From Amphiscolops sp. MND2022 (lineage: Eukaryota): DNA of 64,000 bases. The position numbers were made by a program, and so were the translations under genes. The stretch's first letter is position 1; each line of letters opens with the position of its first letter. The notes beneath the pieces were generated by a model, which saw nothing but the letters and a program-made list of their open reading frames with translations, was not told where the DNA came from and ran no database searches. Below are positions 25,074 to 64,000 of this stretch, one piece after another. The stretch is from NCBI GenBank assembly GCA_964187785.1, contig OZ076409.1, positions 40,116,001 through 40,180,000 on the forward strand, given 5' to 3'.

Positions 25074-25190
25074 AGCTACACCTTCCAGGCATTGACCGTC
25101 TTGACTGACTTACGCTGATTGACCATTTCACTGATTACACAAATTACGCTGCGTCACTAAAATCCACTTTACCGGAATGTGTCTCGTAAT
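25074..25190 (-). repeat. Inverted, diverged copy of the element A left end
   Basis: Its reverse complement attacgagacacattccggtaaagtgg...ggtcaatgcctggaaggtgtagct aligns to 16932-17048. Confidence 0.85.
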
Positions 25191-31819: not shown

Positions 31820-31825
31820 TAGCGA

Positions 31826-35930: not shown

Positions 35931-36110
35931 CCACCCTGTCCCTGCATACAGTTGTGCTGTGCTACTTGATCATTGTTAACTTGACATGTTGAACGTTCTT
36001 GTCTCCGAATTATTTGTTGTGCGTTGAACGTTCTTGTCTCGGAGTTTTTTGTTGTGCTCAGTAATTTGTACACTGTGGCTCGATTCACAGAAATTGAAGG
36101 GCATTTCGTT

Positions 36111-36539
36111 CAGAGGTGTGAGATCGATAGCGGTAGCGTTAGCGACAATTCAGCATAAGTTAGCGATAGCGACAGTTAGCGACAAATTAAAGCGTTACCG
36201 AACTCGCTAAAAGGATTCAAAATTAACTAACGTGAATAACTTGACACTTCTGAATGGCTGTGGCTTGGCTTTTAGACGGTTTCTTTCGAACAGTTATTCA
36301 GTGTGCCCGGCAATGTGCAGAACGCAAGGCGAACCAGATTTGGCCCAAAAATTTTCAAAAATTGATACTTTTAAAGTAAAACTCTGAAATTTTTATAACA
36401 AAATCCTGAAAATTAGAATTTTTGAATTACCGACAGCGTTAGCGATTAGCGAACTCAATTTTTTGCAGCGATAGCGATGGAATTAAGCCAATAGCGATGT
36501 TAGCGATTATCGATAAACTTGTTAGCGATCGCACCTCTG
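36111..36539. mobile_element. hAT-type MITE (429 bp)
   Basis: CAGAGGTG...CACCTCTG termini, perfect 8-bp TSD ATTTCGTT (36103-36110, 36540-36547), subterminal TAGCGA repeats. Confidence 0.9.
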
Positions 36540-38007: not shown

Positions 38008-38683
38008 CAGTGGTGTGAAGGAGGAATGCGACTTAGTTGCTCAGAAAGCAAAGCTTTCTCTAATCTGACTGGTTCACATAGCCTCGCTGCTCAACTCATA
38101 TTGGTTTAACAGGCCTCGATTGCTCGCAAAAATTAGTATTTTCAATATTTTACAGTCTTTCGGGGATAATTTTTTCATAAAAATTATACCAAAAATTTTC
38201 TCTGATTTTTCTCAATCCCAGGATAGTTTTCAATTGTGGAAATCACGAGGGAAACAAAAATGGGAGCACTTTTTCGTTCAGTAAAAATGGAACTACATGT
38301 ATTAAGATAGGAATTTCTGACTTACACTTGGTAAACTCCCACCATTAAACAGTTTCTAAGTATATCTAAAATCAAATTTCATTTTCGTTCTCGAGAGATT
38401 TGAGTTCGTCTACAAGGCAAAAGTTATCAAAAAATATTTATTGGATCACTGATACTTTTTTCTTTAATTAGCATTTTTGAATATTTTGTCTTCAAAAACA
38501 CATGTTTCTAACTTCAGATACAATTATGGTTGCAATTTCAAACAAAAATCATTGTATTCATACCAAAAATTGAAGAAATTTTTGTTTTTACCAAATCGAA
38601 CCATTTTGAATAGTTTTGGAGATATGAGACGACAAACTTTGCATTTTTGAGCAGCCGAGTCGCATTCTTTCTTCACACCACTG
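38008..38683. mobile_element. Tc1/mariner-type MITE, copy 1
   Basis: TA|CAGTGGTGTGAAG...CTTCACACCACTG|TA with imperfect TIRs of about 45 bp. Confidence 0.85.
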
Positions 38684-39009
38684 TACAGTATCCTTCTTTC
38701 CTTACGATGTGTTTTCAGAAACAAAAGCTTCATTGACTATTGTATATTGAACACAAAATAGCACCAGCTTAAATTGATAAATTGAAAACAAAAATAGCAG
38801 GTGGTTAAATTGAATACAGAAATGGCACCAGTTTAAAATGAAAACTAAAATAGCACTAGCTTAAGTTTTTTTTAAAATGGAATTTGAACACTCTGAACTG
38901 TTTGGTGAATAAAATCACAAAAATATAATTGAAAAGAAAACAGTTTATCTCTTGAAGAGCAAATAAACAACGAGTTTTGTAACTTTAATGTTCTAGAAGA
39001 GAAAGTTCC

Positions 39010-39430
39010 TCATTTGAAACGAAACTTTGGGTCCCTCGGGCTTAGACCTTTATTTAACCTGAGCAGGCATCCTTGTTTCCCGCAGAGAGGGCACTTGACC
39101 CAAAAGGTACGACCAGCTGTTTCCCTGTAAATCACAATGTCATTATTTTCGAACGACATCTTGAATGAGTTTCCTTTTTTAAATCTGTAACCAAATGTGT
39201 ATCAAAGATTCCAGGAATACACAAATGAGAAGAACACGCCTCAAAAAACTTATCAGTCACAGGAAAAAGTGAAAACAGGTTCGATAACAGTTTTTAAAAG
39301 CAAGGTTATGTGAAACTTACCTCTCAACCACTTTGATCCAGGCTTGACGGCACTGATCGCATATCGCGTGTTCGTCATGGAGAAACCAAATGCAGGAAAA
39401 GACATTGTCTCCACATATGGCGCAAAGCAT
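39010..39430 (-). CDS. Two-exon RING-finger-like protein (94 aa), copy 1
   Basis: Exons 39430-39321 and 39184-39010, joined by a GTAAG..TACAG intron, give MLCAICGDNVFSCIWFLHDEHAICDQCRQAWIKVVERFKKGNSFKMSFENNDIVIYRETAGRTFWVKCPLCGKQGCLLRLNKGLSPRDPKFRFK*. Ligand pattern CxxC..HxxHxxCxxC..W..CPxC. Confidence 0.75.
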
Positions 39431-41338
39431 TTCCAGGTGGTTAATATGTTTCGGGTGGTTAATGTATTTCAGGTGGCTAATGTGTTTTTTTTTTCAAAAA
39501 TGTAGCAGACTTGTCACACGGTTGTTTGGCGATCGAATGGTCAAAACAACCGGCCCGGACAGAATTCATGGTAAGAGGAAAACTTTGAACTTTTTTCTGT
39601 CAGTATTTTTTATCTCTAGGTTTGAAAAACTTGCTTTACTTCATGACTCAAGTAACCACCTAGTAAAATTATAACCTCTGTACTTGCCACAAGTAACAGT
39701 CTCCACTTAATATTCGGTTTAGTAAACCGACGCGGTACTGCGGTAGTGATATGAAAGAGTCACCTTGATTATCATCTTATTTTGAAATGAAAGCAGTATT
39801 CCCTATGATTTCTTCAATGTTTCTTTTTCGTCCAACCCCCATTATGTCAATATAATTGTGTTTGTATTTTGCGCGAAAACCACCCCCCCCCCCCCCGAGA
39901 CGCCTTAACGTTGGTGTTAGATGGAAGAGACATGGAGAGAGTGAACCAAACAACGTGGTTTTCGAATGGTCCATTACTTCATCTTGCTAGTTTTTTTCGA
40001 AGTGAAATCATTTATTCAGAAACAATAATATTTCAGTATACAATAATACAAAAATATTATTGTAGTACCACTTACAAGTGTCACTCAGAAATGAATATTT
40101 TTCGAAGAATTAAGTAAAATTGTTTGAATGAAAAAAATAAATCTTCAAAAAAATTAATGTAAGTAATTTTTAATAATACTTTAAAGAATTGAATAAGGTA
40201 CATATGTGAACAAATGTTTCCAAAATTTCAAAAGTCAAATTACTTTGTAATAATGATTAAGGGTTATTCAGAAAAATAAATGAACAAACTTGAAAACTTA
40301 AAACAAATCATAAGGAACATCATCATCAACTAACATCAAATGTTAGTCATTAATCTAAGGAGATTAAATCTAATTTACAAAGTTTATGAACGTGAACGTA
40401 AAGCAACGGAAAGTTGGGGTTGATGGCGCAGTCAATATGTCCGTTCACAGGTCTCATCAATAGTCTCATCCGAGTCTGAACAAGAGAAGCAAAAGCCTCT
40501 TTGATAAGGAGTATAACAGTGTTTGAGGCTGTTTGATTATAGGCAGGGGTGTGTAATGTAAGAGATGAGTCATTTCCAGTAACCACTGGTTGGTTAAAAA
40601 GCTCTGCGACGACACAACTCAAAACAAGCTCATGTTCAGGTAATTTGCAATGTTTTGGAGAAAATATAAATTGTCAGATTGGGTTTGTTCGGAAGAATTT
40701 TATGTGGAAACTATGAATGATATTTCAAAAACGGCTGATACTTTTTGAAATCATAGTATGTCTAGAGATTCAATAGCTTTGTGGGAGTTGAAGCAAAGAC
40801 TTGCTTAAAAACTGTGGATAAATCAGTCAAAGAGTAGCACAGAATCTTTTGCACAGAATCAACTTTTGCACAGAATCAACTGTCTGTAACTCCAATTTTG
40901 AATTTTTTCAGACGGAAATTGAACTAATGTAAACTAGAACAAAATTTAGGATACGTTTCTTTCTGACAGTTTTCCAAATTTTCAATCGGTTCAGAAAAAA
41001 ATCGATCCTGAGAAAAAAGGTCGAGGATGTTTTCTTAATCACAGTACTGTAGCTCTCAACCAATGAAATGAATGTGTGGGCCTCAATTAGCCAATGATAT
41101 TTGTTTGTTAGTACCGACTGCTCTGTTGTTTTTCGAAAGTTGATCCAATCACTTGACACAAAATGTTGTTTGTTATTTTTGCTATCGAATATAGACTCAA
41201 GTTGTTTTAATTATTTTTGAGAGGCAACGTGAGTACCGGTACTTTTTGATCCCCGTCGAGAGCAAAGATGAAACAGAGTTCCTAAACCATCTTTTAAGTT
41301 ACGTACCAGCTCTGAGAAAATGTCGCTTTTGTCAACTA

Positions 41339-42014
41339 CAGTGGTGTGAAGGAGGAATGCGACTTAGTTGCTCAGAAAGCAAAGCTTTCTCTAATCTGAC
41401 TGGTTCACATAGCCTCGCTGCTCAACTCATATTGGTTTAACAGGCCTCGATTGCTCGCAAAAATTAGTATTTTCAATATTTTACAGTCTTTCGGGGATAA
41501 TTTTTTCATAAAAATTATACCAAAAATTTTCTCTGATTTTTCTCAATCCCAGGATAGTTTTCAATTGTGGAAATCACGAGGGAAACAAAAATGGGAGCAC
41601 TTTTTCGTTCAGTAAAAATGGAACTACATGTATTAAGATAGGAATTTCTGACTTACACTTGGTAAACTCCCACCATTAAACAGTTTCTAAGTATATCTAA
41701 AATCAAATTTCATTTTCGTTCTCGAGAGATTTGAGTTCGTCTACAAGGCAAAAGTTATCAAAAAATATTTATTGGATCACTGATACTTTTTTCTTTAATT
41801 AGCATTTTTGAATATTTTGTCTTCAAAAACACATGTTTCTAACTTCAGATACAATTATGGTTGCAATTTCAAACAAAAATCATTGTATTCATACCAAAAA
41901 TTGAAGAAATTTTTGTTTTTACCAAATCGAACCATTTTGAATAGTTTTGGAGATATGAGACGACAAACTTTGCATTTTTGAGCAGCCGAGTCGCATTCTT
42001 TCTTCACACCACTG
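41339..42014. mobile_element. Tc1/mariner-type MITE, copy 2 (part of the duplication)
   Basis: Same element at offset +3331. Confidence 0.85.
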
Positions 42015-42340
42015 TACAGTATCCTTCTTTCCTTACGATGTGTTTTCAGAAACAAAAGCTTCATTGACTATTGTATATTGAACACAAAATAGCACCAGCT
42101 TAAATTGATAAATTGAAAACAAAAATAGCAGGTGGTTAAATTGAATACAGAAATGGCACCAGTTTAAAATGAAAACTAAAATAGCACTAGCTTAAGTTTT
42201 TTTTAAAATGGAATTTGAACACTCTGAACTGTTTGGTGAATAAAATCACAAAAATATAATTGAAAAGAAAACAGTTTATCTCTTGAAGAGCAAATAAACA
42301 ACGAGTTTTGTAACTTTAATGTTCTAGAAGAGAAAGTTCC

Positions 42341-42761
42341 TCATTTGAAACGAAACTTTGGGTCCCTCGGGCTTAGACCTTTATTTAACCTGAGCAGGCA
42401 TCCTTGTTTCCCGCAGAGAGGGCACTTGACCCAAAAGGTACGACCAGCTGTTTCCCTGTAAATCACAATGTCATTATTTTCGAACGACATCTTGAATGAG
42501 TTTCTTTTTTTAAATCTGTAACCAAATGTGTATCAAAGATTCCAGGAATACACAAATGAGAAGAACACGCCTCAAAAATCTTATCAGTCACAGGAAAAAG
42601 TGAAAACAGGTTCGATAACAGTTTTTAAAAGCAAGGTTATGTGAAACTTACCTCTCAACCACTTTGATCCAGGCTTGACGGCACTGATCGCATATCGCGT
42701 GTTCGTCATGGAGAAACCAAATGCAGGAAAAGACATTGTCTCCACATATGGCGCAAAGCAT
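42341..42761 (-). CDS. Two-exon RING-finger-like protein, copy 2
   Basis: Duplicate at +3331; frame open, with one G>R change at the start of exon 2. Confidence 0.72.
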
Positions 42762-45447
42762 TTCCAGGTGGTTAATATGTTTCGGGTGGTTAATGTATTT
42801 CAGGTGGCTAATGTGTTTTTTTTTTCAAAAATGTAGCAGACTTGTCACACGGTTGTTTGGCGATCGAATGGTCAAAACAACCGGCCCGGACAGAATTCAT
42901 GGTAAGAGGAAAACTTTGAACTTTTTTCTGTCAGTATTTTTTATCTCTAGGTTTGAAAAACTTGCTTTACTTCATGACTCAAGTAACCACCTAGTAAAAT
43001 TATAACCTCTGTACTTGCCACAAGTAACAGTCTCCACTTAATATTCGGTTTAGTAAACCGACGCGGTACTGCGGTAGTGATATGAAAGAGTCACCTTGAT
43101 TATCATCTTATTTTGAAATGAAAGCAGTATTCCCTATGATTTCTTCAATGTTTCTTTTTCGTCCAACCCCCATTATGTCAATATAATTGTGTTTGTATTT
43201 TGCGCGAAAACCACCCCCCCCCCCGAGACGCCTTAACGTTGGTGTTAGATGGAAGAGACATGGAGAGAGTGAACCAAACAACGTGGTTTTCGAATGGTCC
43301 ATTACTTCATCTTGCTAGTTTTTTTCGAAGTGAAATCATTTATTCAGAAACAATAATATTTCAGTATACAATAATACAAAAATATTATTGTAGTACCACT
43401 TACAAGTGTCACTCAGAAATGAATATTTTTCGAAGAATTAAGTAAAATTGTTTGAATGAAAAAAATAAATCTTCAAAAAAATTAATGTAAGTAATTTTTA
43501 ATAATACTTTAAAGAATTGAATAAGGTACATATGTGAACAAATGTTTCCAAAATTTCAAAAGTCAAATTACTTTGTAATAATGATTAAGGGTTATTCAGA
43601 AAAATAAATGAACAAACTTGAAAACTTAAAACAAATCATAAGGAACATCATCATCAACTAACATCAAATGTTAGTCATTAATCTAAGGAGATTAAATCTA
43701 ATTTACAAAGTTTATGAACGTGAACGTAAAGCAACGGAAAGTTGGGGTTGATGGCGCAGTCAATATGTCCGTTCACAGGTCTCATCAATAGTTGCTAAAC
43801 GATCATTCATTGGTCAGAATATTTTGATCCATGCTAATAACAGGGACTTTGGATCCCTGTCGTGAGCAACTTTAGGAAAAGTTGTTACAAATAGTCTATA
43901 CGAAGTTGAAACTTCATCAAACCGAAAACATTTTTTTATGGAAAACCAGCCATAAATTATGGAACTAAAAACGAACTTTGGACCATGTGCCTTATGCCCC
44001 TCACATAAACATTGTTTCTTATCCAACAACAACCCCACAATTAAGTCCCCCCAAACAAAAGAAAGTAGGTCACTATTCCAAACTGAGCATCATCAACAAA
44101 AACAACTTAACAAACCTGAAAAAGTAGTAAACCGAAAACAAAAAAGAGTTTTTACTGATAGAAATCATGTTAATAACTAATCATGAAACAATGAACTGAT
44201 TACAAATTCTTGCAGTGACAGTGAAAAATACGCATGTACGTATATTCTGAATGGGCGATTGATTGATCATCAATTTATTGAACTTGGTAGTTTTGGTCCC
44301 TGTCGTGAGCACTTCCATTAGCACTGTCAGTGTACGTTTACCAGTACTACTAATAATACATTATATTCCTACTAATGTAACAAGAGTGACTGATTGATAC
44401 TGTGTATGCGAATCAAGCAGTGTAGTTATGCGTCGGCCCGTGTAACTCACCAGAACAAGCCGTGATTATCAGAACTATGTGTAATTATGAAATGCCCAGT
44501 GTAGGTAGTCGAAGTGCGTAGAAACGATGATTGGTGTAAGCTAGTCAATTACTGTAATTTCCGATGGTGTACACTGGTCAATTTACGAAGCTGTGTCAAC
44601 TAGTGTAATGACTTATCAATGAGTGTAATGTGTGACAAGTGTAATGCTTTCAAAAAATTATTCGCGCTCTGATTGGACCAAAATCGAACTAGCTGGATCC
44701 TGCTGGTTTGTTACCGGAGTAGGTCTCGTAATGACGGTTCATAAAATTGCGGACAGGGGTAGTAAATGATGACTCCACTGAAACTTTAAAATTTTGTCCT
44801 GATAAAGCCCCCATTGGAAATTTCAAGTGCCTGCGACACACTTCCGACTGAAGTTTTTCAACAAGAACGTCTCTAGGCGTTACGCTGTGACCCCGATCAG
44901 TGTTTTGAATATCCCAAAACCATCCTGAGGGATCCGACTCAACCAAAATTACGAGGCTTCGAGAGGAGTAAACCCTTTGTGACGAAACGTTTGACCAATT
45001 TGCCCGAGTGTACAACCTTTTCTGACAGCGTTATTGTGCAAACTTGGTGGTATCACGTCAGTGCTACCGACAACACTTTTGGGTAATTGCAACTTTCCCA
45101 ATTTCTTTGAGGTTGAGATGTCAACAGGCAGCTCAACTGTTTGTTTGGTGCGCAGTATCCAAAATCACTGCTACAAATTGCTCGGAAGTAATTGTTCTAG
45201 CTCAACGACTAGCGTCAAACGTGTGGAGTAATTTTCAGCACGCTGTGACCGTTTGAACTTATCTTGACTACGACCCAGAGTCTATATTTGAGTACACGAG
45301 AAGTTCTTTCGACCCATAGTGAACCATCTGGAGCTGGAATGAAACGTTCGAAGAAATTCGAGCCCCACTTCTTTTTCAAGGGGGGAATCACCAGCGCAGC
45401 ACAACCAAACCATAAATTGCCCTTGAAGGTCAAAATTGAACCCCAAA

Positions 45448-47961: not shown

Positions 47962-48108
47962 GGTATATAATATTCAAGACTTTAACGACTCCAGGAGCGT
48001 TGAGACAACTTAATTTGTATATATAATATTCAAGACTTCAACGACTCCAGGAGCGTTAAGACAGAAAATTATTCAAAAATACTAAACATTTTTTTTAAAA
48101 TCCAGGAA

Positions 48109-51100
48109 ATGCTGCTCAAGAAATGCCCCAAATGCTCCTACCAGACAGAGAAGCTCTTCAATTTCAACCGCCATGTTGGAAAATGCGCAGGTGTTGAGAC
48201 CGAACAGGCTGCCACAGGAAGTAGTCACTTTTCTTGTGACAAATGTCTGCTGCCGGTGTCAACTAAGGATGCCCTCAAAAGGCATCAACGGACTGAGAGC
48301 TGCGCTACGAGGGCAATGGAGCTGGCAGAAGGTCTTTTTCCGCCTCTGAGGAAAAACAGTAAGTTATTCCTCACATGTAATATTTATGCTTCGCAAAAAC
48401 GTGCTCGTTACAGTAAAAACCTGCTCATATCAAACTTTTTATCGTGTTACAATTGTGCTGGCGAAATAGGAACGTACCCCCCATTATGAGAACTTTCTTG
48501 TAAGGAGATGCTATAGTACATATCTTTTAATGTTACAGAGACTGTAACGGTGAAGCTGAAAAGCAAAACGTGTGACGCATGTGGTCAGGAGTTTTCTTCC
48601 CGCAGCAACTTGCTGAGGCACCTTGACCGAGCTCCCCATCACCGATATCCCAACATGGCCTTCTCACGAGTCCCCAGAAAGTCAGACAAGGAAGGCAGCT
48701 ATAGGTAAGGATAATCAGTCAAAACCAAAGCTTTTTTTCAGTTGAACAACAGCAAAAGAAGTCAAAAAAATAATTATTTCATACCTTGAAGTCTTTGAGA
48801 GTTAATTGTTTTTTCAAGGTGAAGATACTTGCCATGGAAGTAAGGGTGGAACTTTTCACTGAATAAAAATTTTAGGTATTGTTTTTTGAATGTTCTTAGG
48901 TACTACGAGCACATTGAGGGGACCAAACAAAGTGCCGTCCAAAAGTGCGTTTTGTGGAATGGGGCTGTAGAAAACCAGTCTAAGCTGGTGTTGAACTACC
49001 TGTTACATGGTTTTCCCATCTTATGGAGAGGCGCCAAGCAGCACGCTGAAGGTCTGGTGATTCCGCATGTCCCCAATGAAGCAGCGACGCAGTTTCTGCC
49101 CTTAGCAGAGCACATGCTTCGTTACATGGCTAACCCTGATGTCCCGATTGCAGCAATGTCGGCAAAACTTAATAAGGTGAAATTAGAAACTTTATTTCAT
49201 GGATACCATGTTTTTTTGAAAGTTGATTTATATATACAACTTTTGTTGTTTTCCGTATATTTTTTACCAGGTATTGGCGTAGGTCATAAAGAAACAACTG
49301 TGACACTAGACTAATTTGTTTCAATAAAAGTGAAATGGGAGCTTCTGAATACATCTGGGGAGTGCAACAATTGACATGTACACATACAGGGGACTTTAAG
49401 GGAAACAGATTTTGTCTTCGATTTTCAGAGTTTGTGTTTTTCTGAATAAAAATTTTGGAATCTAGTTATAAATATATTTACATAAATTATATTTACATGT
49501 AGTATAGTATCTATACTTCACATATATCGGAACGAAGAATCCACAAAATTTTACAATCACAATGAGCTTCAAAATCATGAACGATTACCTCCAAAATAGT
49601 TTTGCAATGGTTTATCATCCAGCGGTAGATTCTTCACCACATGTTTAATTATTGTTTTCTCAATTCTACTTTGCTTATGCAGCCAATTTGAAATTGTTTC
49701 AGCAGCGACATTTGACCAGAGAAGAGTATCTTGCAGAGCAGCGCGCGGGAACGGAAGCAGCAGAAAAAGATCTCTTCCCGGTGAACGTGATCGACATCTC
49801 TCTTGGCCACAAGGTGATAAAAACTAGTGTTACCTTTTGTAGATTTTTTATCCAATCCGTTTTTTGCAAGGTGTTTGTCACTGTTGATATGAATGAATTA
49901 CTATGTAATCCAAAATATACAAAACAAAAACAAATCAAATACACTCGTTGCTTTATTTAGATCTTCTCACCACCCAATTGCGTGAAGAATGCCGCATTCG
50001 ACCGTTTTGCGGAATCAAAATTGGTAGCCGGGGCTGATGACGGGTTCCTAACGCAGAGCACTTGGAATTACCTGTTGCTGTCAAACGATCAGTGTGTGAC
50101 CCCCTGGCACATCGACTTTGCCAGCACCAGCGTGTTTTATGTGGTTCTGCTTGGGGAAAAAATTTTCTGGCTGGTCGAGCCAACGAGGAAGAACTTGAGG
50201 CTCTTCAAGCAGTATAGCGAGAAAGACCCAAGAAGCTTGTTAGATATTATTTCTTGAAAAAAAAACAATTGCCCCCACAGGAACATGATTTTGTAAAAAC
50301 AGCCAAATGAAACGTCGAGCTATTTTTCATCCAAACCCGTCTTAATTATAATGTGGGTCTTTTAGAACCACATCATTTGGAGACCTGGAGCAGTTGGAGG
50401 GAGGATGCTGTCACAGGATCCATGCAAGGGCAGGCGACGCTGTTATTTTACCTTCAAAATGGATTCACTGTGTCCTTACCCATGGCGACAGCGTGGCACT
50501 AGGTGCCAATTTCCTCTGCTCTGGACACAGTGATTTAATTATCGATGCCCATTTTGACGAGGAAGAGGATACACGGTAAATATAATACCAAATTAAACAT
50601 CAATCCCCACTTTTATAGTTTTCAACCGTGTTTCGTAACCCCGGAGCATTTTAAATTTTCAAAATTCCTATTTGCATTTTTACATGGCTCCCTGTGTTTA
50701 CTATAGATATCCAACTGTGGCGACAACGTGGAGTGTAATCCTCTTCAACTACCGCAAGATGCGAGTGCCGCCCAATGACCGGTACAGGAGCCTGCTTCAA
50801 AACATGACTCCAAAGATCAAGGAGGAAGAAGCCTCTACAAAAGAAGTTAGCATTATATTTTTTTATTAACCTACTGAAAGCATTTTTTGGTAACCTGACC
50901 TAACTTTCATGATAATAAGTCAAAGTAATGTTATTGTATTCACTGTTGTAACCACTTAATAACAATCGTTTTGTTCTAAGTTCTCCCAGCCTTTAGCATT
51001 GAGACACTGGACATTGAACCGACTCTACAGGTGTACAGCGGAGGCCGTTTTTGCCGAACCAGTCTGAAGGACATCAGAAAAGCCTCACTGCGCTTCGATG

Positions 51101-51674
51101 TCAAGGGTGAAGTAAAAGTTGGGCTTGATCACCAGGCCACAGTCCCAGATGTCACTAACGAGCCATATGAAGTTGATGATCTCTCTGAGCCAGTAGATGA
51201 CCTGACACTGCTCACGCGGGAGATCATGGACTCTCCCCGGCCAATGCGCAGCTACCATAGAGGTAACCGTTGTTAACTAAAAAGTATAGCTAAAACAATT
51301 AAAAGTTCGAAAAAATTTCGTTCAAATCTGTACACTCGCTCCTGGAGTCGTAACAACTAACTCAAGTCGTCCGAACGACCACACTCTTGTGTTTGCTTTG
51401 GTTTCTTGAGTTGGTAAATTTGATTTCAGTCATTCGAAAAGTCCCCTTGTTAATCAATAAACCCTCTGTTTAAAGTCTTCTTTTGAAAACAATGTTTTTT
51501 CCTAAATCCGCTCTAACTATTGCTTGTGTTACTGTTTTAGATTGGGACCTGGAACAAAAGCAATTCGTGACCTCCTCTCTAACAGCTCAGCCCTGGAAGC
51601 AATCTGAGTTTAGCAGATTCAAGCATATTGCTGCAATTGCCCCGTCAGCACACGAGTTTAACTGTGCAAACTGA
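48109..51674 (+). CDS. C2H2-type zinc finger + JmjC histone demethylase (KDM2/KDM7-like), 9 exons, apparently open
   Basis: Phase-consistent exons: 48109-48358, 48539-48704, 48900-49176, 49703-49813, 49961-50238, 50366-50575, 50707-50845, 51031-51262 (acceptor uncertain), 51541-51674. Three fingers (CPKC..H..C, CDKC..H, CDAC..H). JmjC motifs YLLLSNDQCVTPWHIDFASTSVFYVVLLGEKIFW and LPSKWIHCVLTHGDSVALGANFL, with the HxD..H triad intact. Confidence 0.88.
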
Positions 51675-52661
51675 AATCATTTTGATTTTAGATTGTTTAT
51701 TAGAGAGATTAGAAATTTTTAGAAGATACTAGAATAAATTTTCGAAACAGTTTTTTTTATTCTGGAGTCGCAGCCTGTGGCATTATTGTTCTGAAAAATC
51801 CATAATGTACCTCTAAATTCATGGACCACTACCTTCAAACTAAACTTACACATGTTTCGTCCAATACGCAGCTACCATAGAGGTAACCGTTGTTAGCCAA
51901 ATGTTTTAGCTAAAAACAATGTATTGTTCAATAAAATTTCGTTTAAATCAAAACTCTCGCTCCCGGAGTCGTTACAGCTGATTTCAGTTGTCCAAACGAA
52001 CACACTCTATTTTTTGCCTTTGCTCCCAGAGACATTAAATTGGATTTCAGTCATTCGAAGACATCCCTCTTCAATTGTTAAACCCTCTGTGTAAAGGTCT
52101 TCTTTTGAAAATACTATTCTTTCCTAAATCCGAAAAATTGTTAGTTTTAAAAATTCCTGAGTCGCAACTAGTAGCTTTATCGTTGTAAAAAATCCATAAA
52201 TTTACAACTAAATTCATGAACCACCACCTTCAAATTAATTTTACACATGGTTTATCATCAAATTGTAGTTTCTGCAGATCATGGTTAATTATTATTGCCT
52301 CAATTCTAATGCGCAATTCAATAATCCGAGCTATTAAAATTGTCCTCATGGACCACTACTTTCCAATTAACCATCCACGTGTCCTGTCATGTAATTATAG
52401 ATTCTTCACATTATGTGTAATTATCAATGCCTCCATTCTACTGTAAAATTCACAACCAAGCCATAAAATTAAAAATTGATATTTAGGGAGTTAATTGAAA
52501 AATGATAGGTGTCATTGAATTGAGTTTGTCACTTTCCAATTCATTCAACATAAAATTCTAAAGAGATCCATTCCAATGGACAACCATTCAACTATCATTC
52601 ACCCACATCGACCAGCTGCTTATTTGCTAAACTCAAAAACAATCTCAAACTAGATCTCAGA

Positions 52662-55040
52662 ATGTCTGATTCTTTGGGAAGTCTCTCAATTAACAACAGT
52701 GATTTGACCCAATATTCACAAAGCAGCCCCTTTCTAACTCCTATGCAGCCTCCACAACCACTTAACCATGATGCTAATCATCATTTTCATAGCACCCCTG
52801 CACCGCTTCAACATAATAACTTCTCCTTCCACGAGTCGTACTTAGGCCATCCAATCCCGTGCCCGCCTAACTTCTCTCAAATTCTCGACCCAAAAACACC
52901 CCAATGTCACAACGGTTATACTCAAAGCAGGACATCATCCACGAACTCCAGTGATCAAGCGTGGCTAGAACATTATGAGGCAACTGCGCTTGCTACTAGC
53001 ACCGGCACTTTGAAGCGCAGTCTCAATTTCACTGCCAAGACTTTAATTGAACCAGGAACAAAATTGCCCCGACAGGAGTGGTCGGAGAAAGTAGGCCCCC
53101 AAATTTAGAAGACAGTTCGGGAAATTGCAGAAGCGTACGACACTTGTGGAGCGCTGACGTTCCAACAACAGTTGACACTCTTCCACGGCATTGTCACATA
53201 TCTTTACATGTATGTTGACCCGTCACTGTGATGGCGAAGAGCATTTTAGCTATGACAGTACATGCCGTCGCCCAAGTTGTGTCACAGCTTGACGAGCTAA
53301 GCCAGGACACCATGTACGAACTGAGCCTTGAACCATCTTTGGGTAATTGTTGCATTTTTTGGCAAACATGAAGCAGAACATTGAATGGAAAAAACCTTCT
53401 TATAATTAGGAAAAGTAATAATGAAGACACACTTCATAAAAAGGATCTGTCATGTTACACTTTTCTAGAATTTTAATCCTTTTGTTTTAAGAAACACTAT
53501 TCGATCGCAGCATAAAATAATTAAGAGAAGTAATAATGAAGAAACACTTTACGAAAAGTATCTGTCATGTTACACTTTTCTAGAATTTTAAACCTTTTGT
53601 TTTAGGAAACACTATTCGATCGCAGCATAAAATCTGCTCTTGGGTGGTGAATGCGATGCGGGTTTATCACCTTGGCGTGAGACCCAATTTCCAAAGACAA
53701 TCCCCACAAGTGGTCAAGAGGGCGTTCCCACGGGACGATGGCACCTAAGAGGTACAGACCGAACTTTTCTTCGTCACGTCCAAAGGAAACACGAATTTTA
53801 ACCCCAGAAAAATTGCAGAAGAGTTTATGGACAAGGTACAAGAAGTTCAAAAATAGAAATTGAACGGTCACTATGTGCAATAGTTACAAACTTTCAAAAT
53901 TGTCTTTTAGTATAGTCGTTTCATAGTTGACTTCTACAATGTTAATTGATTCTTGTGAAAGATTTCGTTGCTCGTTAATGATTGTATTTTGTTGTAGATG
54001 CAAAAGAATTCACGGGAGACAGTGGAAGATGTGCGTGCTGCAGGGTTATGCCAACCAAGCACTTGCCCTGCCAACATCCTGCGACGCCGTCTTCAAAAAG
54101 AAGTCACAGGCCACAACGGAGATCTGGAAAAATGTCGACATGATCTGGGCTGCCGCCAACGAGGTCACTGAACGACAACTGAGCGCATGTGTGACAAAAC
54201 GCCTCAATGCGCAGCGTTATGCCCGACAAGTGTTGCGAGCAAAAGATTTCATCACATTTTGCAGCAACAAACGAAACCAGGTCAACCCCACCAGACAGAG
54301 GCTCATTGAGTTCTACAACAAGAACTCCTGGAACACAGAAGAAGATCTCAAAAAAGTTTGTAATTCACGAACCTTAGAAATTAACCAGTTGTTACACTGC
54401 TTTAAAAGACTGCTTGAATAACTATAGGATGAAAAACATAGGTATATCATGTTATTTTTATCCCTTGTTTCAAAAGACATTCAAGATTGTCACTGATCGC
54501 CTGAATCCGGAGGCACTGCAGACTCCATCAGTTGCCCCCCGTCACGATGTCTTGTTCCTGCCAGCCCAGCACGAACAATCGGAGTGCTTCAAGAAGACAC
54601 TTTCCAAACGGTGCAAGTCGCAGCATTGGCCAGCAATCTGCGACGTGCAAGTGAAAGGTCTTGGTCGTGGGGTTATCACGACAGCGAAGATCGACAAAGG
54701 AGAGATTCTGGCTGATTACCATGGGGAAGAAATAAAAGGTATGAAGCTGAACGAGTTCCTTGAAATACCAAGCAACCAAACCGAGTATCTCTTCCAACTA
54801 GGCCAGAAACATCTCATCGACGCTTCCAGTGGAATCTGCAAGGAGCATCCGAACAACAGGTGCCTTGCCAGGTTATTCAACCACAAATCGGCCAAAAAAG
54901 CAAACGTGAAGCCAGTGCTGATAAATATAGCGCCCAACAAAGACGTCCTGATGTTTGTGGCGAAAACTGAAATCCCTCCCTTCGAAGAGCTTCGATTCGA
55001 TTATGGCGATGAAGAAACGAGGCGACTGTTCGACGAATAA
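52662..55040 (+). pseudogene. Multi-exon gene ending in an intact SET domain; 5' part disrupted
   Basis: Last exon GLGRGVITTAKIDKGEILADYHG..YLF..IDAS..CKEHP..LARLFNHKS..NV..EELRFDYGD. Upstream TAG at 53106 (CAG in the duplicate), TAA at 53746 and apparent frameshifts. Confidence 0.85.
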
Positions 55041-55231
55041 TTTTTTGTCTTGTGATTAGTTCAGATAACAAACAAACTGAATTTTAGTTTTCACGTTTTT
55101 GAATTAAATTCATTTTCAAATTAGATATGTTTCTGGAATTGTTACGTTGCTGGAAAAAAAAATTTTCGAGGACTGAATGTGCTTGCGGAGTCGTTACGTT
55201 GTTTGTAAAGGAGTTGTTGGCTTAAAAAACA

Positions 55232-55912
55232 AGTGTACTACTACCTTCGAATAACAACTAGCAATGGTGTAAAATTGATCTCTAGATTCTTCAAACAATG
55301 CTTTAAAGTTACGTTCTCAATTCTAGAGCGCTTTCTAAGCGCAAGTTGAGCTAATGGTTTTTGAAGAATCCACGAAAAAAGCTGAAACAACTGCTCAAAA
55401 CTAGTGTACTTCTACCTTTGAATAACAACTAGCAATGGTTTAAAATTGATCTCTAGATTCTTCAAACAAGGCTTTAAAATTACGTTCTCAATTCTAGAGC
55501 GCTTTCTAAACGCAAGTTGAGCTAATGGTATTTGAAAAATCCACAAAAAGAGCTTAAACAACTGCTAAAAACTAGTGTACTACTACCTTTGAATAACAAC
55601 TAGCAATGGTTTTAAATTGATCTCTAGATTCTTCAAACAATGCTTTAAAATTACGTTCTCAATTCTAGAGCGCTTTCTAAACGCAAGCTAAGCTAATGGT
55701 ATTTGAAGAATCCACAAAAAGAGCTTAAACAACTGCTCAAAACTAGTGTACTACTACCTTTGAATAACAACTAGCAATGGTTTAAAATTGATCTCTAGAT
55801 TCTTCAAACAATGCTTTAAAGTCACTTTCTCAATTCTTAGCGCTCATTTTAAACGCGAGCTGAACTAATGGTATTTGAAGAATCCACAAAATTCACTGAA
55901 CTACTTGCTCAA
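55232..55912 (+). repeat. 171-bp tandem repeat x4
   Basis: agtgtact starts at 55232, 55403, 55574 and 55745. Confidence 0.95.
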
Positions 55913-56107
55913 TTTTTGTGTAGTGGAGAATTGGAAAGCTGTCGATAGAGGAAAATTTTTTTGATCGAAGATGTCAAAAGTCAGTTGATTTGATTACTGG
56001 TATGATCAGATAGAATTCATTCAATTTGATGAACATGGCAACGTTTTTTTTACATGTATTAATACGCGTACAAAACTTTATATATGTGTCCAATTCAACG
56101 GCATAAT

Positions 56108-56330
56108 GGGGATGGTGGCGCAGTTGATAAATCACGTGGGTATGTAATGAAGCTTGATGCGTTGTCAATCAAGGGTTCGATCCCCGCCAATAAACTTCCA
56201 GTTGATTCGATGCAGACTACTCTGCATTCCCTCCTCCACTGTATTGAATCAGCAAAAGACATTGTGTTCCTCTTCACAATGATAGCCCACATGTAAGGAT
56301 CACTGCGCCGCTGCATCCCTTTTTGGATCA
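56108..56330 (+). ncRNA. tRNA-derived Pol III-like unit, copy 2
   Basis: A-box-like TGGCGCAGTTGA (56116), B-box GGTTCGATCCC (56174), 3' catcccttttt. Confidence 0.55.
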
Positions 56331-57424
56331 TCCAGATGAACTGAAATTAATAATTTAGATGAAATGAATCAATCGGGTTAAAGGTCGATTCTCACATATG
56401 AACTTCTAGGCGACTCGATACAGACAACATTGTCGGTATAATTCGGCTTCACAAACAATCGGAATGCCCAATTGACGGTTCAATCCGCTTTTGCATGCAT
56501 CCTTTTTTGATGAGTCGCACAACGAAACTGCATCTTTTTTTGAAGCGAATACGAGCAAGAATTTTGAATTTCGAGAAACTCAAACTCGAACTCGTTTTTT
56601 GACGCATAATAAACTGCTGCATAATAAGACGCTGCATTTAACTAAATTAACTAATTTTTAATACTCGTATTACAATGAAAATTTCCCAAAATGTTTGAAA
56701 TGCAATGCTTGATGGTAAGAAGCTGATTGTTTTCAAACAAGCTTTGACGCCCCTTGATTGTATTAGTTGAGTAAAATTGGTTGATTTCAAACTACACGGT
56801 GAATTACGCAGTAGAATTGAGGGACTAATTACTATATACGGTGTGAAGAATCTATAATTGAATGATTAAACATGCGGTAGTGCAAATTGAAGGTAGTGGT
56901 ACACGAATTCAAACTGAACTTGTTCGTTAATTTTTGTGGATTCTTCATAACATTATGACTGCTATGAACCTACGTTTATAAACTCCGTACAAAAACGGTT
57001 TGAATTATTGTGTATTTGAATTATCGAATACAAAATTAATAGTAACCTATGATTGCATCAATCTTCAACTGAAAAATAAGAATATGGTCGCTAAACAATT
57101 GCTCCCGGAGTCGTTACAAAATATTGGGAAGGATCATTTTTGTATCGAAAAAAATGAACTAATCGAACTCCACTAAAACGTACGAAAAAGCCACAAAATT
57201 ACCTGACATCACGTATTCGGAAGGTTCCAAAACACAGCCTTTCTTCTCAACTTCTTCAATGTATGTCGCCCTATGGTTTTGAAAAGCTATCAATCAAAAA
57301 CATTATTCTTTGATAAAAGAGGTTGTCATCAATCAATCATTACTTAGACCAAAACAGAAATAGTATACAATTGAACAATCAAATTCGTGTTAGTATTTAT
57401 TTGTGTGCAATACAACGGCATATA

Positions 57425-57615
57425 GGGGATGGTAGCGCAGTTGATATTTCACATGGGTATGCAGTGAAGCTAGACGCGTTGTCTACCACCGGATCGATTC
57501 TCCCATAGACACTGTTTGGCGACTCGATGCAGACCATCGTTTCACTTCACAGCGATTGGAAAGCATAATTGAAGATCCAATCAACTCAACTGCGCAACTG
57601 CATCCCTTTTTGATG
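57425..57615 (+). ncRNA. tRNA-derived Pol III-like unit, copy 3
   Basis: ggggatggTAGCGCAGTTGA..GGATCGATTCT..gactcgatgcagac..catccctttttgat. Confidence 0.45.
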
Positions 57616-58039
57616 TGAAAAGGATAAATAGGTTGTTGATCGTTATTTTCCTTTACAGCGATAGGAAGGCACAATTGAAGATCCACTGCATCCAGGGGTG
57701 TTCAATAAACAACTATACCTAAGAATAATTGAAATGATAAAAATAAAAAAAAAATACTTCTACACTTAAATGAACAAACACAATTATTTTTGAACCTGTT
57801 AAAAGAAAAACAATTATTCTTGAGGTAACTAAAACTAACTAAGAACGTTCAATTCAACATATCGTCAATCAATTAAATTCGAACATACAGAAACAGCTTT
57901 TGTTGATATCCGTTTTTCGCTGAGAATAAAAATATTTCTTTCAACAAAAAAATGATGAAATTGTCTATTTTTCACTATGAAATTAAAATAATTTATTTTT
58001 AGGCAACGATAATCATCGAATAAAACATTGAACACCCCT

Positions 58040-58555
58040 GACTGCATCCCTTTTTGATGTACAAAAAGATCAGTTGTATATTTCCTTCACAGCGATAGGA
58101 AGGCACTTTTGAAGATCCACCGCATCTTTTGATGTAGAGAAAGATCAGTTGATCCTTGTTAATTTCTCTCACAGCGATAGGAAGGCACTTTTGAAGATCC
58201 ACTGCATCACTTTCTGATCTGCAAAAAGATCAGTTCATTGTTGGTGCTTTTCACAGCGATAGGAAGGCATTTTTGAATATCAACCGCATCTTTTGATGTG
58301 GAGAAAGATCAGTTGATCCTTGTTAATTTCTCTCACAGCGATAGGAAGGCACTTTTGATGATTCACTGCATCTTTTTCTGATCTGCAAAAAGATCAGTTC
58401 ATTGTTGGTGCTTTTCACAGCGATAGGAAGGCATTTTTGAAGATCCACTGCATCCTTTTTTGATCTGAAAAAAGATCAGTTGATTGTTGGTACTTCTCAA
58501 TAAGATGGGAAGGCACAATTGAAGGTTCAATCCGCCACAGCATCCATTTTTGATG
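58040..58555 (+). repeat. 82-bp tandem repeat with alternating variants (164-bp dimer)
   Basis: cacagcgataggaaggc starts at 58088, 58170, 58252, 58334 and 58416. Confidence 0.92.
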
Positions 58556-60240
58556 AAAACAGTGATGTCCATTTTCAGTCAAAATTAAAAAATATAAACT
58601 ATCAATTCAATATGAATTAGCCGAATAATCTGTTTTCGGCACTGATGCATTAATGTACGAAACTTTAAGTTATAAAACATCATTTACTTGAAACAAATAG
58701 CAACTCTCCCTCTCCCACACAATTTTTTTAAAGAATAGGGAAAATAGTATGAACCAACTTTGTATTCCAATTATAAACTGTATCTCTAGAAATACCTTTA
58801 AAATTGAAGGAATCTGGTCTGTAATCAAGTTTTTCTGTTATTACAAGTAGTTGCAAAAACATCATCTTGAAAAGTGTGTGTGTGGGGGGATAGTTCCTGA
58901 ATGGACATCACTGGATGAGAAGAAAGAGAATAAAGATAAACCTGTATAATTGGTATACTGAATTGATTTCAAATTTTACGTCGAATTGCGCAGTAGAATC
59001 GAGGGACAAATTACTTTACATGGTGTGAAGAATCTATAATTGGATAATAAAACATGCGAGAGTGTAAATCGAAAGTATTGGTCCACGAATTCAAAATAAA
59101 TTTGTTCGTTCCTTTTTGTGGATTCTTCGCAAAAATAGGACTGCTATGAAAATACTTTTTAAAACGTCATGCAAAACTGGTTTGCAATTTTGATTCCTTT
59201 GGAAAAAAACAAATGAAAAATTACTTTGCCATTTTGTAACTAATGAAATCGTACAATTATCTTTGTAATCGCGTTGTCTAAGCTCGTTAAAAAGAATTTT
59301 CAAGTGGTAACTGTATCTTGAATTATCTCGGACCATATGGTACTGTTCGATCTCTTAGTTGAACAATTTGTTCAACTAGGCAGGTCTTTTGTCAACATTA
59401 TTGTTGATCATTTTTCTTTTAACCGCTACCACATTCCCCCGCCGGCAATTGACGGTTGGGAATTTCTATTAATAGGCTATTTCTATTAATTAACATGGGC
59501 AATGTTATTTGACACTAATTTTGTTTTTATGTTATTTGCACTTATGGTATTTGGTACGTAATCATCCGTTCCGTTGCCCTTGTGGAGTCGTTACATTAAA
59601 CTAAACATTTATATTTAGTCCTGTTATTATCATGCTCATGGAGTCGTTACGGGGAAGTCCCAAATAACATAAGAGCAAATAGCATAAAATTAGTTCAAAT
59701 AACATAAAACTGAAATGGGTTTCACTAAACACGGAATTTGAAACTAATTTCATTTTCGTGTTCTTCGACACCAATTTTGCCTCTGCTATTTGCACTTGTT
59801 ATTCGGTACGTATTTGTCGTTAAATGTTTCTAAACATTTGTGCTATATCTTATTTTCATCGCGCTCATGGAGTCGTTACATCTGACTAAACGTTTTATTT
59901 CTATGTCATATATTCATTGCGAATAAATTGTACCAAAAATAAAACACTTGACTTAACTTACTCGAAGATTGAGTTTGTTTGATTGCTCAAATTGAAGGTT
60001 TGCAGTTATCTTGTTGTCTTCAGGAAATTCTTGAAGTCTTCAGGAGATTCAGAATACGACTGATTATCAGCAGCAATGGTTGTTAAATAACGTTACTAGA
60101 TAAAGCGAGGGATTTTGAAGTTTGTTTACATGACGCACAAATTTCTGCGCGTCATGGTCACGTGACAAAAAGTTCATCTAATTCCAAGTACATGTAACGT
60201 TTTTGGATCAAGCTAGATATTTTGTTTACATAAGGCAAAA

Positions 60241-63200
60241 TTAATTATCGATGCCCATTTTGACGAGGAAGAGGATACACGGTAAATATAACACCAAATT
60301 AAACATCAATCCCCACTTTTATAGTTTTCAACCGTGTTTCGTAACCCCGGAGCATTTTAAATTTTCAAAATTCCTATTTGCATTTTTACATGGCTCCCTG
60401 TGTTTACTATAGATATCCAACTCTGGCGACAATGTGGAGTGTAATCCTCTTCAACTACCGCAAGATGCGAGTGCCGCCCAATGACCGGTACAGGAGCCTG
60501 CTTCAAAACATGACTCCAAAGATCAAGGAGGAAGAAGCCTCTACAAAAGAAGTTAGCATTTTATTTTTTTGTTAACCTACTGAAAGCATTTTTTGGTAAC
60601 CTGAATTAACTTTCATGATAATAAGTCAAAGTAATGTTATTGTATTCACTTTTGTAACCACTTAATAACAATCGTTTTGTTCTAGGTTCTCCCAGCCTTT
60701 AGCATTGAGACACTGGACATTGAACCGACTCTACAGGTGTACAGCGGAGGCCGTTTTTGCCGAACCAGTCTGAAGGACATCAGAAAAGCCTCACTGCGCT
60801 TCGATGTCAAGGGTGAAGTAAAAGTTGGGCTTGATCACCAGGCCACAGTCCCAGATGTCACTAACGAGCCATATGAAGTTGATGATCTCTCTGAGCCAGT
60901 AGATGACCTGACACTGCTCACGCGGGAGATCATGGACTCACCCCGGCCAATGCGCAGCTACCATAGAGGTAACCGTTGTTAATTAAAAAGTATAGCTAAA
61001 ACAATTAAAAGTTCGAAAAAATTTCGTTCAAATCTGTACACTCGCTCCTGGAGTCGTAACAACTAACTCAAGTCGTCCGAACGACCACACTCTTGTGTTT
61101 GCTTTGGTTTCTTGAGTTGGTAAATTTGATTTCAGTCATTCGAAAAGTCCCCTTGTTAATCATTAAACCCTCTGTTTAAAGTCTTCTTTTGAAAACAATG
61201 TTTTTTCCTAAATCCGCTTTAACTATTGCCTGTGTTACTGTTTTAGATTGGGACCTGGAACAAAAGCAATTCGTGACCTCCTCTCTAACAGCTCAGCCCT
61301 GGAAGCAATCTGAGTTTAGCAGATTCAAGCATATTGCTGCAATTGCCCCGTCAGCACACGAGTTTAACTGTGCAAACTGAAATTATTTTGATTTTAGATT
61401 GTTTATTAGAGAGATTAGAAATTTTTAGAAGATACTAGAATAAATTTTCGAAACAGTTTTTTTTATTCTGGAGTCGCAGCCTGTGGCATTATTGTTCTGA
61501 AAAATCCATAATGTACCTCTAAATTCATGGACCACTACCTTCAAACTAAACTTACACATGTTTCGTCCAATACGCAGCTACCATAGAGGTAACCGTTGTT
61601 AGCCAAATGTTTTAGCTAAAAACAATGTATTGTTCAATAAAATTTCGTTTAAATCAAAACTCTCGCTCCCGGAGTCGTTACAGCTGATTTCAGTTGTCCA
61701 AACGAACACACTCTAGTTTTTGCCTTTGCTCCCAGAGACATTAAATTGGATTTCAGTCATTCGAAGACATCCCTCTTCAATTGTTAAACCCTCTGTGTAA
61801 AGGTCTTCTTTTGAAAATACTATTCTTTCCTAAATCCGAAAAATTGTTAGTTTTAAAAATTCCTGAGTCGCAACTAGTAGCTTTATCGTTGTAAAAAATC
61901 CATAAATTTACAACTAAATTCATGAACCACCACCTTCAAATTAATCTTACACATGGTTTATCATCAAATTGTAGTTTCTGCAGATCATGGTTAATTATTA
62001 TTGCCTCAATTCTAATGCGCAATTCAATAATCCGAGCTATTAAAATTGTCCTCATGGACCACTACTTTCCAATTAACCATCCACGTGTCCTGTCATGTAA
62101 TTATAGATTCTTCACATTATGTGTAATTATCAATGCCTCCATTCTACTGTAAAATTCACAACCAAGCCATAAAATTAAAAATTGATATTTAGGGAGTTAA
62201 TTGAAAAACGATAGGTGTCATTGAATTGAGTTTGTCACTTTCCAATTCATTCAACATAAAATTCTAAGGAGATCCATTCCAAAGGACAACCATTCAACTA
62301 TCATTCACCCACATCGACCAGCTGCTTATTTGCTAAACTCAAAAACAATCTCAAACTAGATCTCAGAATGTCTGATTCTTTGGGAAGTCTCTCAATTAAC
62401 AACAGTGATTTGACCCAATATTCACAAAGCAGCCCCTTTCTAACTCCTATGCAGCCTCCACAACCACTTAACCATGATGCTAATCATCATTTTCATAGCA
62501 CCCCTGCACCGCTTCAACATAGTAACTTCTCCTTCCACGAGTCGTACGAGGCCATCCAATCCCGTGCCCGCCTAACTTCTCTCAAATTCTCGACCCAAAA
62601 ACACCCCAATGCCACAACGGTTATACTCAAAGCAGGACATCATCCAAGAACTCCAGTGATCAAGCGTGGCTAGAACATTATGAGGCAACTGCGCTTGCTA
62701 CTAGCACCGGCACTTTGAAGCGCAGTCTCAATTTCACTGCCAAGACTTTAATTGAACCAGGAACAAAATTGCCCCGACAGGAGTGGTCGGAGAAAGTAGG
62801 CCCCCAAATTCAGAAGACAGTTCGGGAAATTGCAGAAGCGTACGACACTTGTGGAGCGCTGACGTTCCAACAACAGTTGACACTCTTCCACGGCATTGTC
62901 ACATATCTTTACATGTATGTTGACCCGTCACTGTGATGGCGAAGAGCATTTTAGCTATGACAGTACATGCCGTCGCCCAAGTTGTGTCACAGCTTGACGA
63001 GCTAAGCCAGGACACCATGTACGAACTGAGCCTTGAACCATCTTTGGGTAATTGTTGCATTTTTTGGCAAACATGAAGCAGAACATTGAATGGAAAAAAC
63101 CTTCTTATAATTAGGAAGGGTAATAATGAAGACACACTTCATAAAAAGGATCTGTCATGTTACACTTTTCTAGAATTTTAATCCTTTTGTTTTAGGAAAC

Positions 63201-64000
63201 ACTATTCGATCGCAGCATAAAATAATTAAGAGAAGTAATAATGAAGAAACACTTTATGAAAAGTATCTGTCATGTTACACTTTTCTAGAATTTTAAACCT
63301 TTTGTTTTAGGAAACACTATTCGATCGCAGCATAAAATATGCTCTTGGGTGGTGAATGCGATGCGGGTTTATCACCTTGGCGTGAGACCCAATTTCCAAA
63401 GACAATCCCCACAAGTGGTCAAGAGGGCGTTCCCACTGGACGATGGCACCTAAGAGGTACAGACCGAACTTTTCTTCGTCACATCCAAAGGAAACACGAA
63501 TTTTAACCCCAGAAAAATTGCAGAAGAGTTTATGGACAAGGTACAAGAAGTTCAAAAATAGAAATTGAACGGTCACTATGTGCAATAGTTATAAACTTTC
63601 AAAATTGTCTTTTAGTATAGTCGTTTCATAGTTGACTTCTACAATGTTAATTGATTCTTGTGAAAGATTTCGTTGCTCGTTAATGATTGTATTTTGTTGT
63701 AGATGCAAAAGAATTCACGGGAGACAGTGGAAGATGTGCTGCAGGGTTATGCCAACCAAGCACTTGCCCTGCCAACATCCTGCGACGCCGTCTTCAAAAA
63801 GAAGTCACAGGCCACAACGGAGATCTGGAAAAATGTCGACATGATCTGGGCTGCCGCCAACGAGGTCACTGAACGACAACTGAGCGCATGTGTGACAAAA
63901 CGCCTCAATGCGCAGCGTAATGCCCGACAAGTGTTGCGAGCAAAAGATTTCATCACATTTTGCAGCAACAAACGAAACCAGGTCAACCCCACCAGACAGA
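60241..64000 (+). pseudogene. Direct duplicate of 50535-54299 (3' exons of ZnF-JmjC plus 5' part of the SET gene), running off the window
   Basis: Offset 9706 at the start (ORFs 50672/60378, 51031/60737). It lacks the JmjC catalytic exons and has extra indels near 62548 and 63738. Confidence 0.95.

Follow-up and report, generated by a model that had tools for sequence, protein, structure and literature searches.

We analyzed 64,000 nucleotides of the Amphiscolops sp. MND2022 genome (positions 40,116,001 to 40,180,000 of contig OZ076409.1, assembly GCA_964187785.1), and this whole stretch is referred to below as the window. It is repeat-rich eukaryotic DNA with GT-AG introns, interrupted by N gaps at 1953-2152 and 47762-47961. 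Two related gene blocks lie in it, A (approximately 17401-44320) and B (47963-60240). Element B carries a gene for a protein with zinc fingers and a JmjC domain, a second gene with a SET domain, and dispersed copies of a short sequence, motif B (GCTCMNGGAGTCGTTAC); block A has a motif of its own, motif A (TTTGRTCCCYGTCGTGAGC). The larger features are the following.

47963..60240, plus strand: element B, visible extent; its left end lies behind the N gap 47762-47961, and its right end was not located in the window
48109..51674, plus strand: gene 1, ZnF-JmjC-ELM2-like; nine-exon model, open frame of 598 amino acids, acceptor of intron 7 uncertain
48124..48186, plus strand: finger 1 (CCHC), helix KLFNFNR
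48235..48303, plus strand: finger 2, helix TKDALKR (family scan and model)
48571..48642, plus strand: finger 3 (exon 2), helix SRSNLLR (family scan and model)
52662..55040, plus strand: gene 2, N-terminal and helical regions without a family, then a SETD8-like SET domain; stops and frameshifts are present, and the pieces presumably belong to one gene
60241..64000, plus strand: 99% duplicate of 50535-54299, extending past the window edge
17401..44320, plus strand: block A, used as the comparison element; decayed SET gene (approximately 27776-28560) and decayed ZnF-JmjC gene (approximately 32560-36000)

Genes of element B and their relatives

In gene 1, a frame-consistent GT-AG pair was found at the expected place in seven of the eight introns, the acceptor of intron 7 being more distant. 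The spliced model joins C2H2-type fingers and the JmjC domain in one open chain. Among solved structures, this JmjC domain is closest to PHF8 (E = 1.6e-10), KDM7 and KDM2A, and the metal and cofactor residues (HxD, K and H) are present; a weak ELM2 match was also obtained (E = 0.032). An N-terminal PHD finger is a feature of PHF8 and KDM7. In the scanned B exons no PHD domain was found, and the first exons matched C2H2-type families only. No sequencing run was listed for 48000-57500, which says nothing on expression.

The SET domain of gene 2 is closest to SETD8 (E = 8.1e-9). The gene is broken in the window, and many of its relatives have a long open first exon. Block A contains decayed homologs of both genes, with 33-52% identity in six matched pieces. 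The helical exon upstream of SET has relatives reaching as low as about 32% identity, and further subfamilies therefore exist; for this comparison the repeat proteins P0007 and P0008 were dropped, and seven of the other 11 were aligned together with P0014, P0015 and the exon of the window. In block A, a decayed coding region lies between SET and ZnF-JmjC (29900-31820); it had no Pfam match and no clear PHROGs match, and no counterpart was seen in B.

Two of the 10 B exon products that were looked up had exact copies in the protein collection, where they fell into clusters of 17 and 15 members (90% identity), and the finger exon had 17 relatives there. With contigs identified by their length (35 lengths) and 15 of the 17 members covered, at least six contigs carried both clustered exons, one of them being the window's own match; at least five carried the finger and JmjC exons together, and at least two carried all three. 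To judge from these copies, B is a dispersed, linked and partly decayed multigene unit, most simply a mobile element.

Short stretches of gene 2 may resemble tyrosine recombinases; Pfam, PHROGs, PDB sequence and one-exon fold searches gave no match. Across the element, no transposase or recombinase family was detected by Pfam (28 + 24 translations), PHROGs or PDB sequence search. Three fold searches of one gene 2 exon gave no recombinase; for its 122-amino-acid model (pLDDT 85.8), a best Z of 5.5 was obtained, to an unrelated helical repeat. In the ESM Atlas, the SET exon matched SET clusters only and the helical exon unnamed low-recognition clusters; no longer fused form of either exon was found, a negative of little weight.

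Wider scans yielded candidates that were set aside. Two metagenome loci, both with a bacterial binding-protein-like frame and without either motif, were rejected as chance. Two prokaryote genome loci with a 26-residue match, from which the motif was absent, were also rejected. Viral scans by protein gave no related loci; the four loci obtained by motif each had a single copy and were not similar to the window.

Motif B and its distribution

The copies of motif B in the window are as follows.

1137..1321, minus strand: three copies (1137, 1214 and 1305) within tandem units of 77-91 bases that have diverged; in the vicinity, no B gene was found
47982..47998, minus strand: upstream of ZnF-JmjC, in the first unit of a 56-base pair; 1 mismatch
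48038..48054, minus strand: second copy upstream of the ATG; 2 mismatches
51338..51354, plus strand: within intron 51263-51540, the last one of ZnF-JmjC; pattern match
51959..51975, plus strand: in a 78% duplicate (51858-52132) of the last-intron region; pattern match
55181..55197, plus strand: 140 bases past the SET stop; 2 mismatches
57101..57117, plus strand: intergenic; exact
59578..59594, plus strand: weakest copy; 3 mismatches, matrix score 25.5
59634..59650, plus strand: intergenic; exact
59863..59879, plus strand: intergenic; exact
61044..61060, plus strand: copy of 51338 in the 99% duplicate; pattern match
61665..61681, plus strand: copy of 51959 in the 99% duplicate; pattern match

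With up to two mismatches, GCTCMNGGAGTCGTTAC had 13 matches in the 64,000 bases, compared to a mean of 0.02 and a maximum of 1 in 100 shuffles; with up to three mismatches there were 14. A first-pass annotation of the window had given 13 coordinates for the motif. Twelve of them are copies (11 with 0-2 mismatches, and 59578 with three), but 51761 is not: the plus-strand sequence 51758..51774 has six mismatches and only TGGAGTCG in common with the motif. Since the copies at 61044 and 61665 lie inside the 99% duplicate, they are not independent, and its removal left 12 nonredundant sites, from which a weight matrix was built. This matrix holds approximately 31 bits. It scores 14 places in the window at 25.5-33.3 and leaves the range 11.6-25 empty, with leave-one-out scores of 21-33; in 30 order-3 Markov controls, the mean number of matches at a score of at least 16 was 0.13. 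Unrelated copies have 13-15 of the 15 core bases in common, and their flanks are close to background and fail to align. Thus, there is no single longer repeat of which motif B would be the core. We conclude that motif B is real.

The motif had been described as having a palindromic core, CTCC-N-GGAG. The conserved part is instead one-sided: GGAGTCGT is intact at 12 of 12 sites, CTCC at 8 of 12. All 14 occurrences of GGAGTCGT in the window are motif B copies, and all 10 exact CTCCNGGAG palindromes have TCGT on one side only. The palindrome or hairpin reading was therefore rejected, and the site looks directional rather than symmetric. The invariant CpG of the motif carries little weight, because CpG is only mildly depleted in the window (observed/expected 0.88).

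Nine sites lie in block B, two in the duplicate and three at 1137-1321. None was detected in block A (26.9 kb), in the inverted repeat with the satellites (11.3 kb) or in two LTR-like stretches (4.0 and 3.4 kb). Motif A had 13 matches with up to three mismatches, against 0.02 expected, all of them within 17561-44310 and 12 strong by matrix. Thus, block A has 12 A sites and no B site, block B with the duplicate has 11 B sites and no A site, and the two motifs have only GTCGT in common. Along the window the order of A and B sites forms three runs (runs test, p = 5e-6 for 23 sites and p = 0.003 for 15 clusters of neighbors). That motif B marks element B, as first annotated, holds for 11 of the 14 copies but not for the three at 1137-1321, approximately 46 kb away, where no B gene was found. 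The broader claim that each subfamily has its own motif agrees with the clean A/B split inside the window, although the subfamilies are two and 3 of the 14 B sites lie outside B.

In both blocks, sites are located upstream of ZnF-JmjC, inside introns and after the genes. Two copies were indeed present upstream of the ZnF-JmjC start, as annotated: from the ends of these minus-strand copies to the ATG at 48109, the distances are 111 and 55 bases. Local or tandem units containing the motif were seen at 1099-1339, 47962-48077 and 51238-51510/51858-52132 and comprise at least 7 of the 12 sites; the remaining sites are solitary.

A second motif, GAAGAATCCACA, occurs in nine exact copies against 0.01 expected, five in B, four in the left region of the window and none in block A.

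10-348: cluster of exact GAAGAATCCACA copies
49534, 55705, 55877, 56935 and 59117: single exact GAAGAATCCACA copies

Around 1137-1321, one 69-base match to B was also found, and it is weak (71%, E = 0.004). Because of this match and the GAAGAATCCACA copies, the cluster at 1137-1321 may mark the border of a B relative that is truncated by the end of the window and by the N gap. Beside it lie 33-base inverted repeats (623-655 and 1072-1104, 91%, approximately 420 bases apart), which resemble a small inverted-repeat insertion. The related sequence GTGGA(A/T)TCCA forms a cluster at 18854-20031 in block A and occurs a few times at 47114-47343.

Both blocks also contain a unit of 200-220 bases with words that we take to be A-box- and B-box-like and a T run at its end; pairing between its two ends yields a long stem.

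56105-56325 and 57423-57612: copies of the A-box-/B-box-like unit in block B
18181-18404: copy in block A
20527-20635, 20963-21057, 40374-40444 and 43702-43772: pieces of the unit

Folding of the two B copies gave z of approximately -4, the A copy did not fold (z = 0.34), and in the terminal stem no two-sided change was seen among three sequences. The unit is a candidate short interspersed element (SINE) or element-borne polymerase III (Pol III) RNA. An 82-base array (58079-58497, 5.1 copies) consists of the 3' end of this unit, and a 171-base array (55226-55891, 3.9 copies) is made from a dispersed B repeat.

Near-identical nearby or tandem duplications were found at 37139-40464 versus 40470-43792 (99.9%), 50535-54299 versus 60241-64000 (99.0%) and 45923-46881 (98%); they could reflect either recent duplication or an assembly artifact. 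A 79% direct repeat (17601-17831 versus 43792-44021), with an A motif in each copy, lies at the visible ends of block A and could represent the ends of the element or the beginning of a second A copy. The stretch between A and B, which had no match in Pfam scans, is presumably an LTR-retrotransposon remnant, with gag-like frames (again our label, without a family match) and a 477-base internal duplication at 45776-46965. On the left, a large inverted duplication (2625-6585 and 8646-13412, arms 88-96% alike) contains two satellite arrays with 84-base units (19 and 28 copies) and neither motif A nor motif B. The 84-base period is noncoding and does not represent a finger array. No tRNA genes or Rfam families were found in the 64-kb window.

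Candidate readers of motif B

We consider it probable that motif B is a functional, element-specific cis site. The reading that we favor, tentatively and at somewhat less than even confidence, is that the element's own finger-JmjC protein binds motif B and lifts silencing from the element's own copies and promoter. Local duplication of 50-280-base units would have raised the copy number of motif B, which would have been retained as its flanks diverged. A protein encoded by the element, most plausibly finger-JmjC, would bind it, and in the invariant GAGTCGTT GAG would be contacted by finger 3 and GTT by finger 2. Binding would tether a PHF8/KDM2-like demethylase to the promoter, introns and spacers of the element, where it would remove a repressive histone mark, so that each subfamily would reactivate only its own copies. 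The SETD8-like protein possibly acts on the same mark: since PHF8 can demethylate H4K20me1 and H3K9me1 (PMC12296644, in the excerpted text) and H4K20me1 is made by SETD8 (PMC8897848, likewise), both cargo enzymes may, by analogy, act on one mark.

In line with this reading, the 14 copies are sharp without intermediate matrix scores, the block B sites avoid exons, and the A and B motifs are mutually exclusive while the A and B genes are homologous. When 18 first exons were aligned, fingers 1 and 2 departed from the majority at their recognition positions in 4 of 144 cells, compared to 109 of 1350 elsewhere. According to the accessible part of an engineered-helix table (PMC3607563), Arg at +6 specifies G, Asn at +3 A, Ala or Ser at +3 T, and Thr at -1 T; this predicts GTT for finger 2 and GAN for fingers 1 and 3. 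Motif B contains GAG-TC-GTT, which would suit fingers 3 and 2 if a gap of 2 bases is allowed; the order is correct (shuffle P = 0.037), and motif A has no such match. A three-GNN register over the motif B core was rejected, as 23% of shuffles give one.

Several observations weigh against the favored reading. The gapped fit of fingers 3 and 2 was chosen after seeing the data and can serve as a lead only, and the contiguous prediction GAN GTT GAK agrees with motif B at 5 of 8 positions, which is chance level (shuffle P = 0.43). The table used has no entry for two of the helix residues, K and S at -1, and finger modules are context dependent, as the excerpted text of PMC2632909 warns. Of the 16 conserved bases, three spaced fingers could read approximately 9, about half of the length, and for the rest one has to invoke a dimer, a partner or another protein. 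In addition, the first Cys of finger 1 is missing in 8 of the 18 aligned relatives, including a whole amplified cluster, so that this finger is maybe dispensable; the loss also shows that copies spread without it. The linkers between the fingers have 16 and 29 residues, unlike the short linkers of ordinary DNA-reading arrays. Because GAAGAATCCACA follows the distribution of motif B, the pairing of protein to motif is ambiguous, and the three motif B copies outside the element count on the same side. The location of all nine block B sites outside exons speaks for the reading, with P = 0.037 by site, but weakens to P = 0.16 when they are grouped into five clusters. Five local duplicate pairs also speak for it, being identical at 72 of 75 positions of the 15-base core compared to 309 of 460 in the flanks; this contrast is overstated, because the pairs were picked for having the motif. 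The comparison for coevolution covers two subfamilies, one of them with broken fingers: block A has one intact finger, 35% identical over 23 residues to the third finger of B, and its other fingers are frameshifted, so the key of A is unreadable. Finally, no termini, target duplication or mobilizing enzyme of the element were found in the 64-kb window.

An unlikely reading, and still the most serious competitor, is that motif B is the site of another protein of the element, from the region upstream of SET, or of a mobilizing enzyme encoded outside the window, and serves excision, integration or replication, the fingers reading, for example, GAAGAATCCACA. It would then resemble the repeated transposase-binding sites of DNA transposons. 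Motif B holds more information (approximately 31 bits) than three spaced fingers should read, its sites cluster near the visible ends of B in opposite directions (minus at 47982 and 48038, plus at 59578-59863), and the diverged relatives of the region upstream of SET (28-92% identity) fit as well, as do the short stretches there that may resemble tyrosine recombinases. Several sites are internal, however, in an intron and between genes, and the family searches gave no recombinase or transposase.

We hold it improbable that motif B serves a host insulator protein or transcription factor and was acquired by this element family to shield or drive its genes, another subfamily having acquired another host site, without any self-recognition. 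Host multifinger proteins typically have long, asymmetric motifs of 14-17 bases with a CpG, and such a factor would accommodate the three copies outside B where no B gene was found. The absence of the motif from 18.7 kb of three other repeat regions and from the 26.9 kb of block A argues against it, as does the outside cluster itself, which with its GAAGAATCCACA copies and weak B match is maybe the edge of a B relative. That the copies lack a function and are neutral remnants, left by a small ancestral repeat or by very short insertions, is quite improbable: the local duplicate units and the richness of the window in short repeats would suit it, but neutral decay would not leave such sharp motif edges, decayed intermediates are absent from the matrix scores, the CpG is invariant, and block A has a parallel but different motif.

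The first-pass annotation had proposed that each subfamily has a motif of its own, coevolving with its own zinc fingers as a lock-and-key self-recognition system. Overall, we regard that proposal as partly supported, a testable hypothesis with a plant precedent and with two subfamilies in one window.

Relation to known systems and significance

The VANDAL transposons of Arabidopsis are of the class with a Mutator-type transposase. No VANC homolog and no Mutator-type transposase was among the Pfam families of the 28 + 24 scanned translations, with the element ends out of view. As far as the accessible text of PMC5735166 goes, VANC proteins bind short family-specific motifs in noncoding, often tandem, parts of their own transposons. 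Element B is similar in that such motifs lie in introns, intergenic and terminal noncoding DNA, with local repeats (PMC5735166); in the VANDALs they differ between related families, as they do between A and B in this window. VANC motifs have 8-9 bases and their binding has been shown, whereas motif B has 14-17 bases and its binding is a prediction. VANC removes DNA methylation (PMC5735166), in contrast to the candidate reader of B, a C2H2-type finger protein fused to JmjC beside a SET gene. By this analogy, the data suggest that each element may tag its own DNA so that its own enzyme would prevent silencing; the anti-silencing logic would be that of VANC, built of different parts.

A JmjC histone demethylase with its own zinc fingers in one chain is also found in REF6/JMJ12 of Arabidopsis (PMC7105484, PMC6497721), and REF6 is targeted by these fingers (PMC7105484). 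According to the excerpts of the same papers, REF6 is a single host gene that reads six bases at thousands of genes. The B gene differs from it in lying in a repeated element, in its N-terminal, widely spaced fingers and in a JmjC domain that is PHF8/KDM2/KDM7-like. PHF8, KDM7 and KDM2 together with SETD8 are the closest solved relatives of the two catalytic domains, whose catalytic motifs are present in B. Unlike B, which has fingers, an ELM2-like tail and many decayed copies, each of these demethylases is one host gene.

Membership in the Cryptons, including CryptonV, was considered as well, also against the available part of PMC5753468. Long terminal repeats were not seen in B, and Cryptons lack them too in the excerpted accounts (PMC3212892, PMC8869645). 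Crypton features are a tyrosine recombinase with an R-H-R-Y tetrad and terminal direct repeats of 4-6 bases; in B no search revealed a recombinase. The accessible parts of both accounts mention neither JmjC cargo nor dispersed internal motifs, and JmjC or SET cargo is not mentioned in that of PMC11162782. In the literature covered, with few subscription papers and no Repbase Reports (the source of CryptonV), we found no description of a repeated element with a PHF8-like JmjC and a SETD8-like SET domain, so novelty is not proven.

It is a speculative and on balance unlikely proposal that B represents a class of eukaryotic DNA element not described before, one with a self-addressed histone-editing kit. 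Such a kit would comprise a finger-JmjC eraser, a SETD8-like writer and subfamily-specific address words of 14-17 bases in the element's own noncoding DNA, key and address changing together, possibly along with a structured Pol III RNA of its own.

A repeated element with both PHF8-like and SETD8-like domains is noteworthy even if self-binding fails. In plant VANDALs, transposon self anti-silencing is well worked out, and the mark-removing enzyme is not identified in the accessible account (PMC5735166). Here a candidate reader, a candidate enzyme and a candidate address lie together within 12 kb, next to a diverged sister unit, and the B/A pair lets one study the evolution of private addresses by which selfish DNA may counter silencing by its host. 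If true, the self-addressed kit would parallel plant VANC anti-silencing independently and with enzymes of its own.

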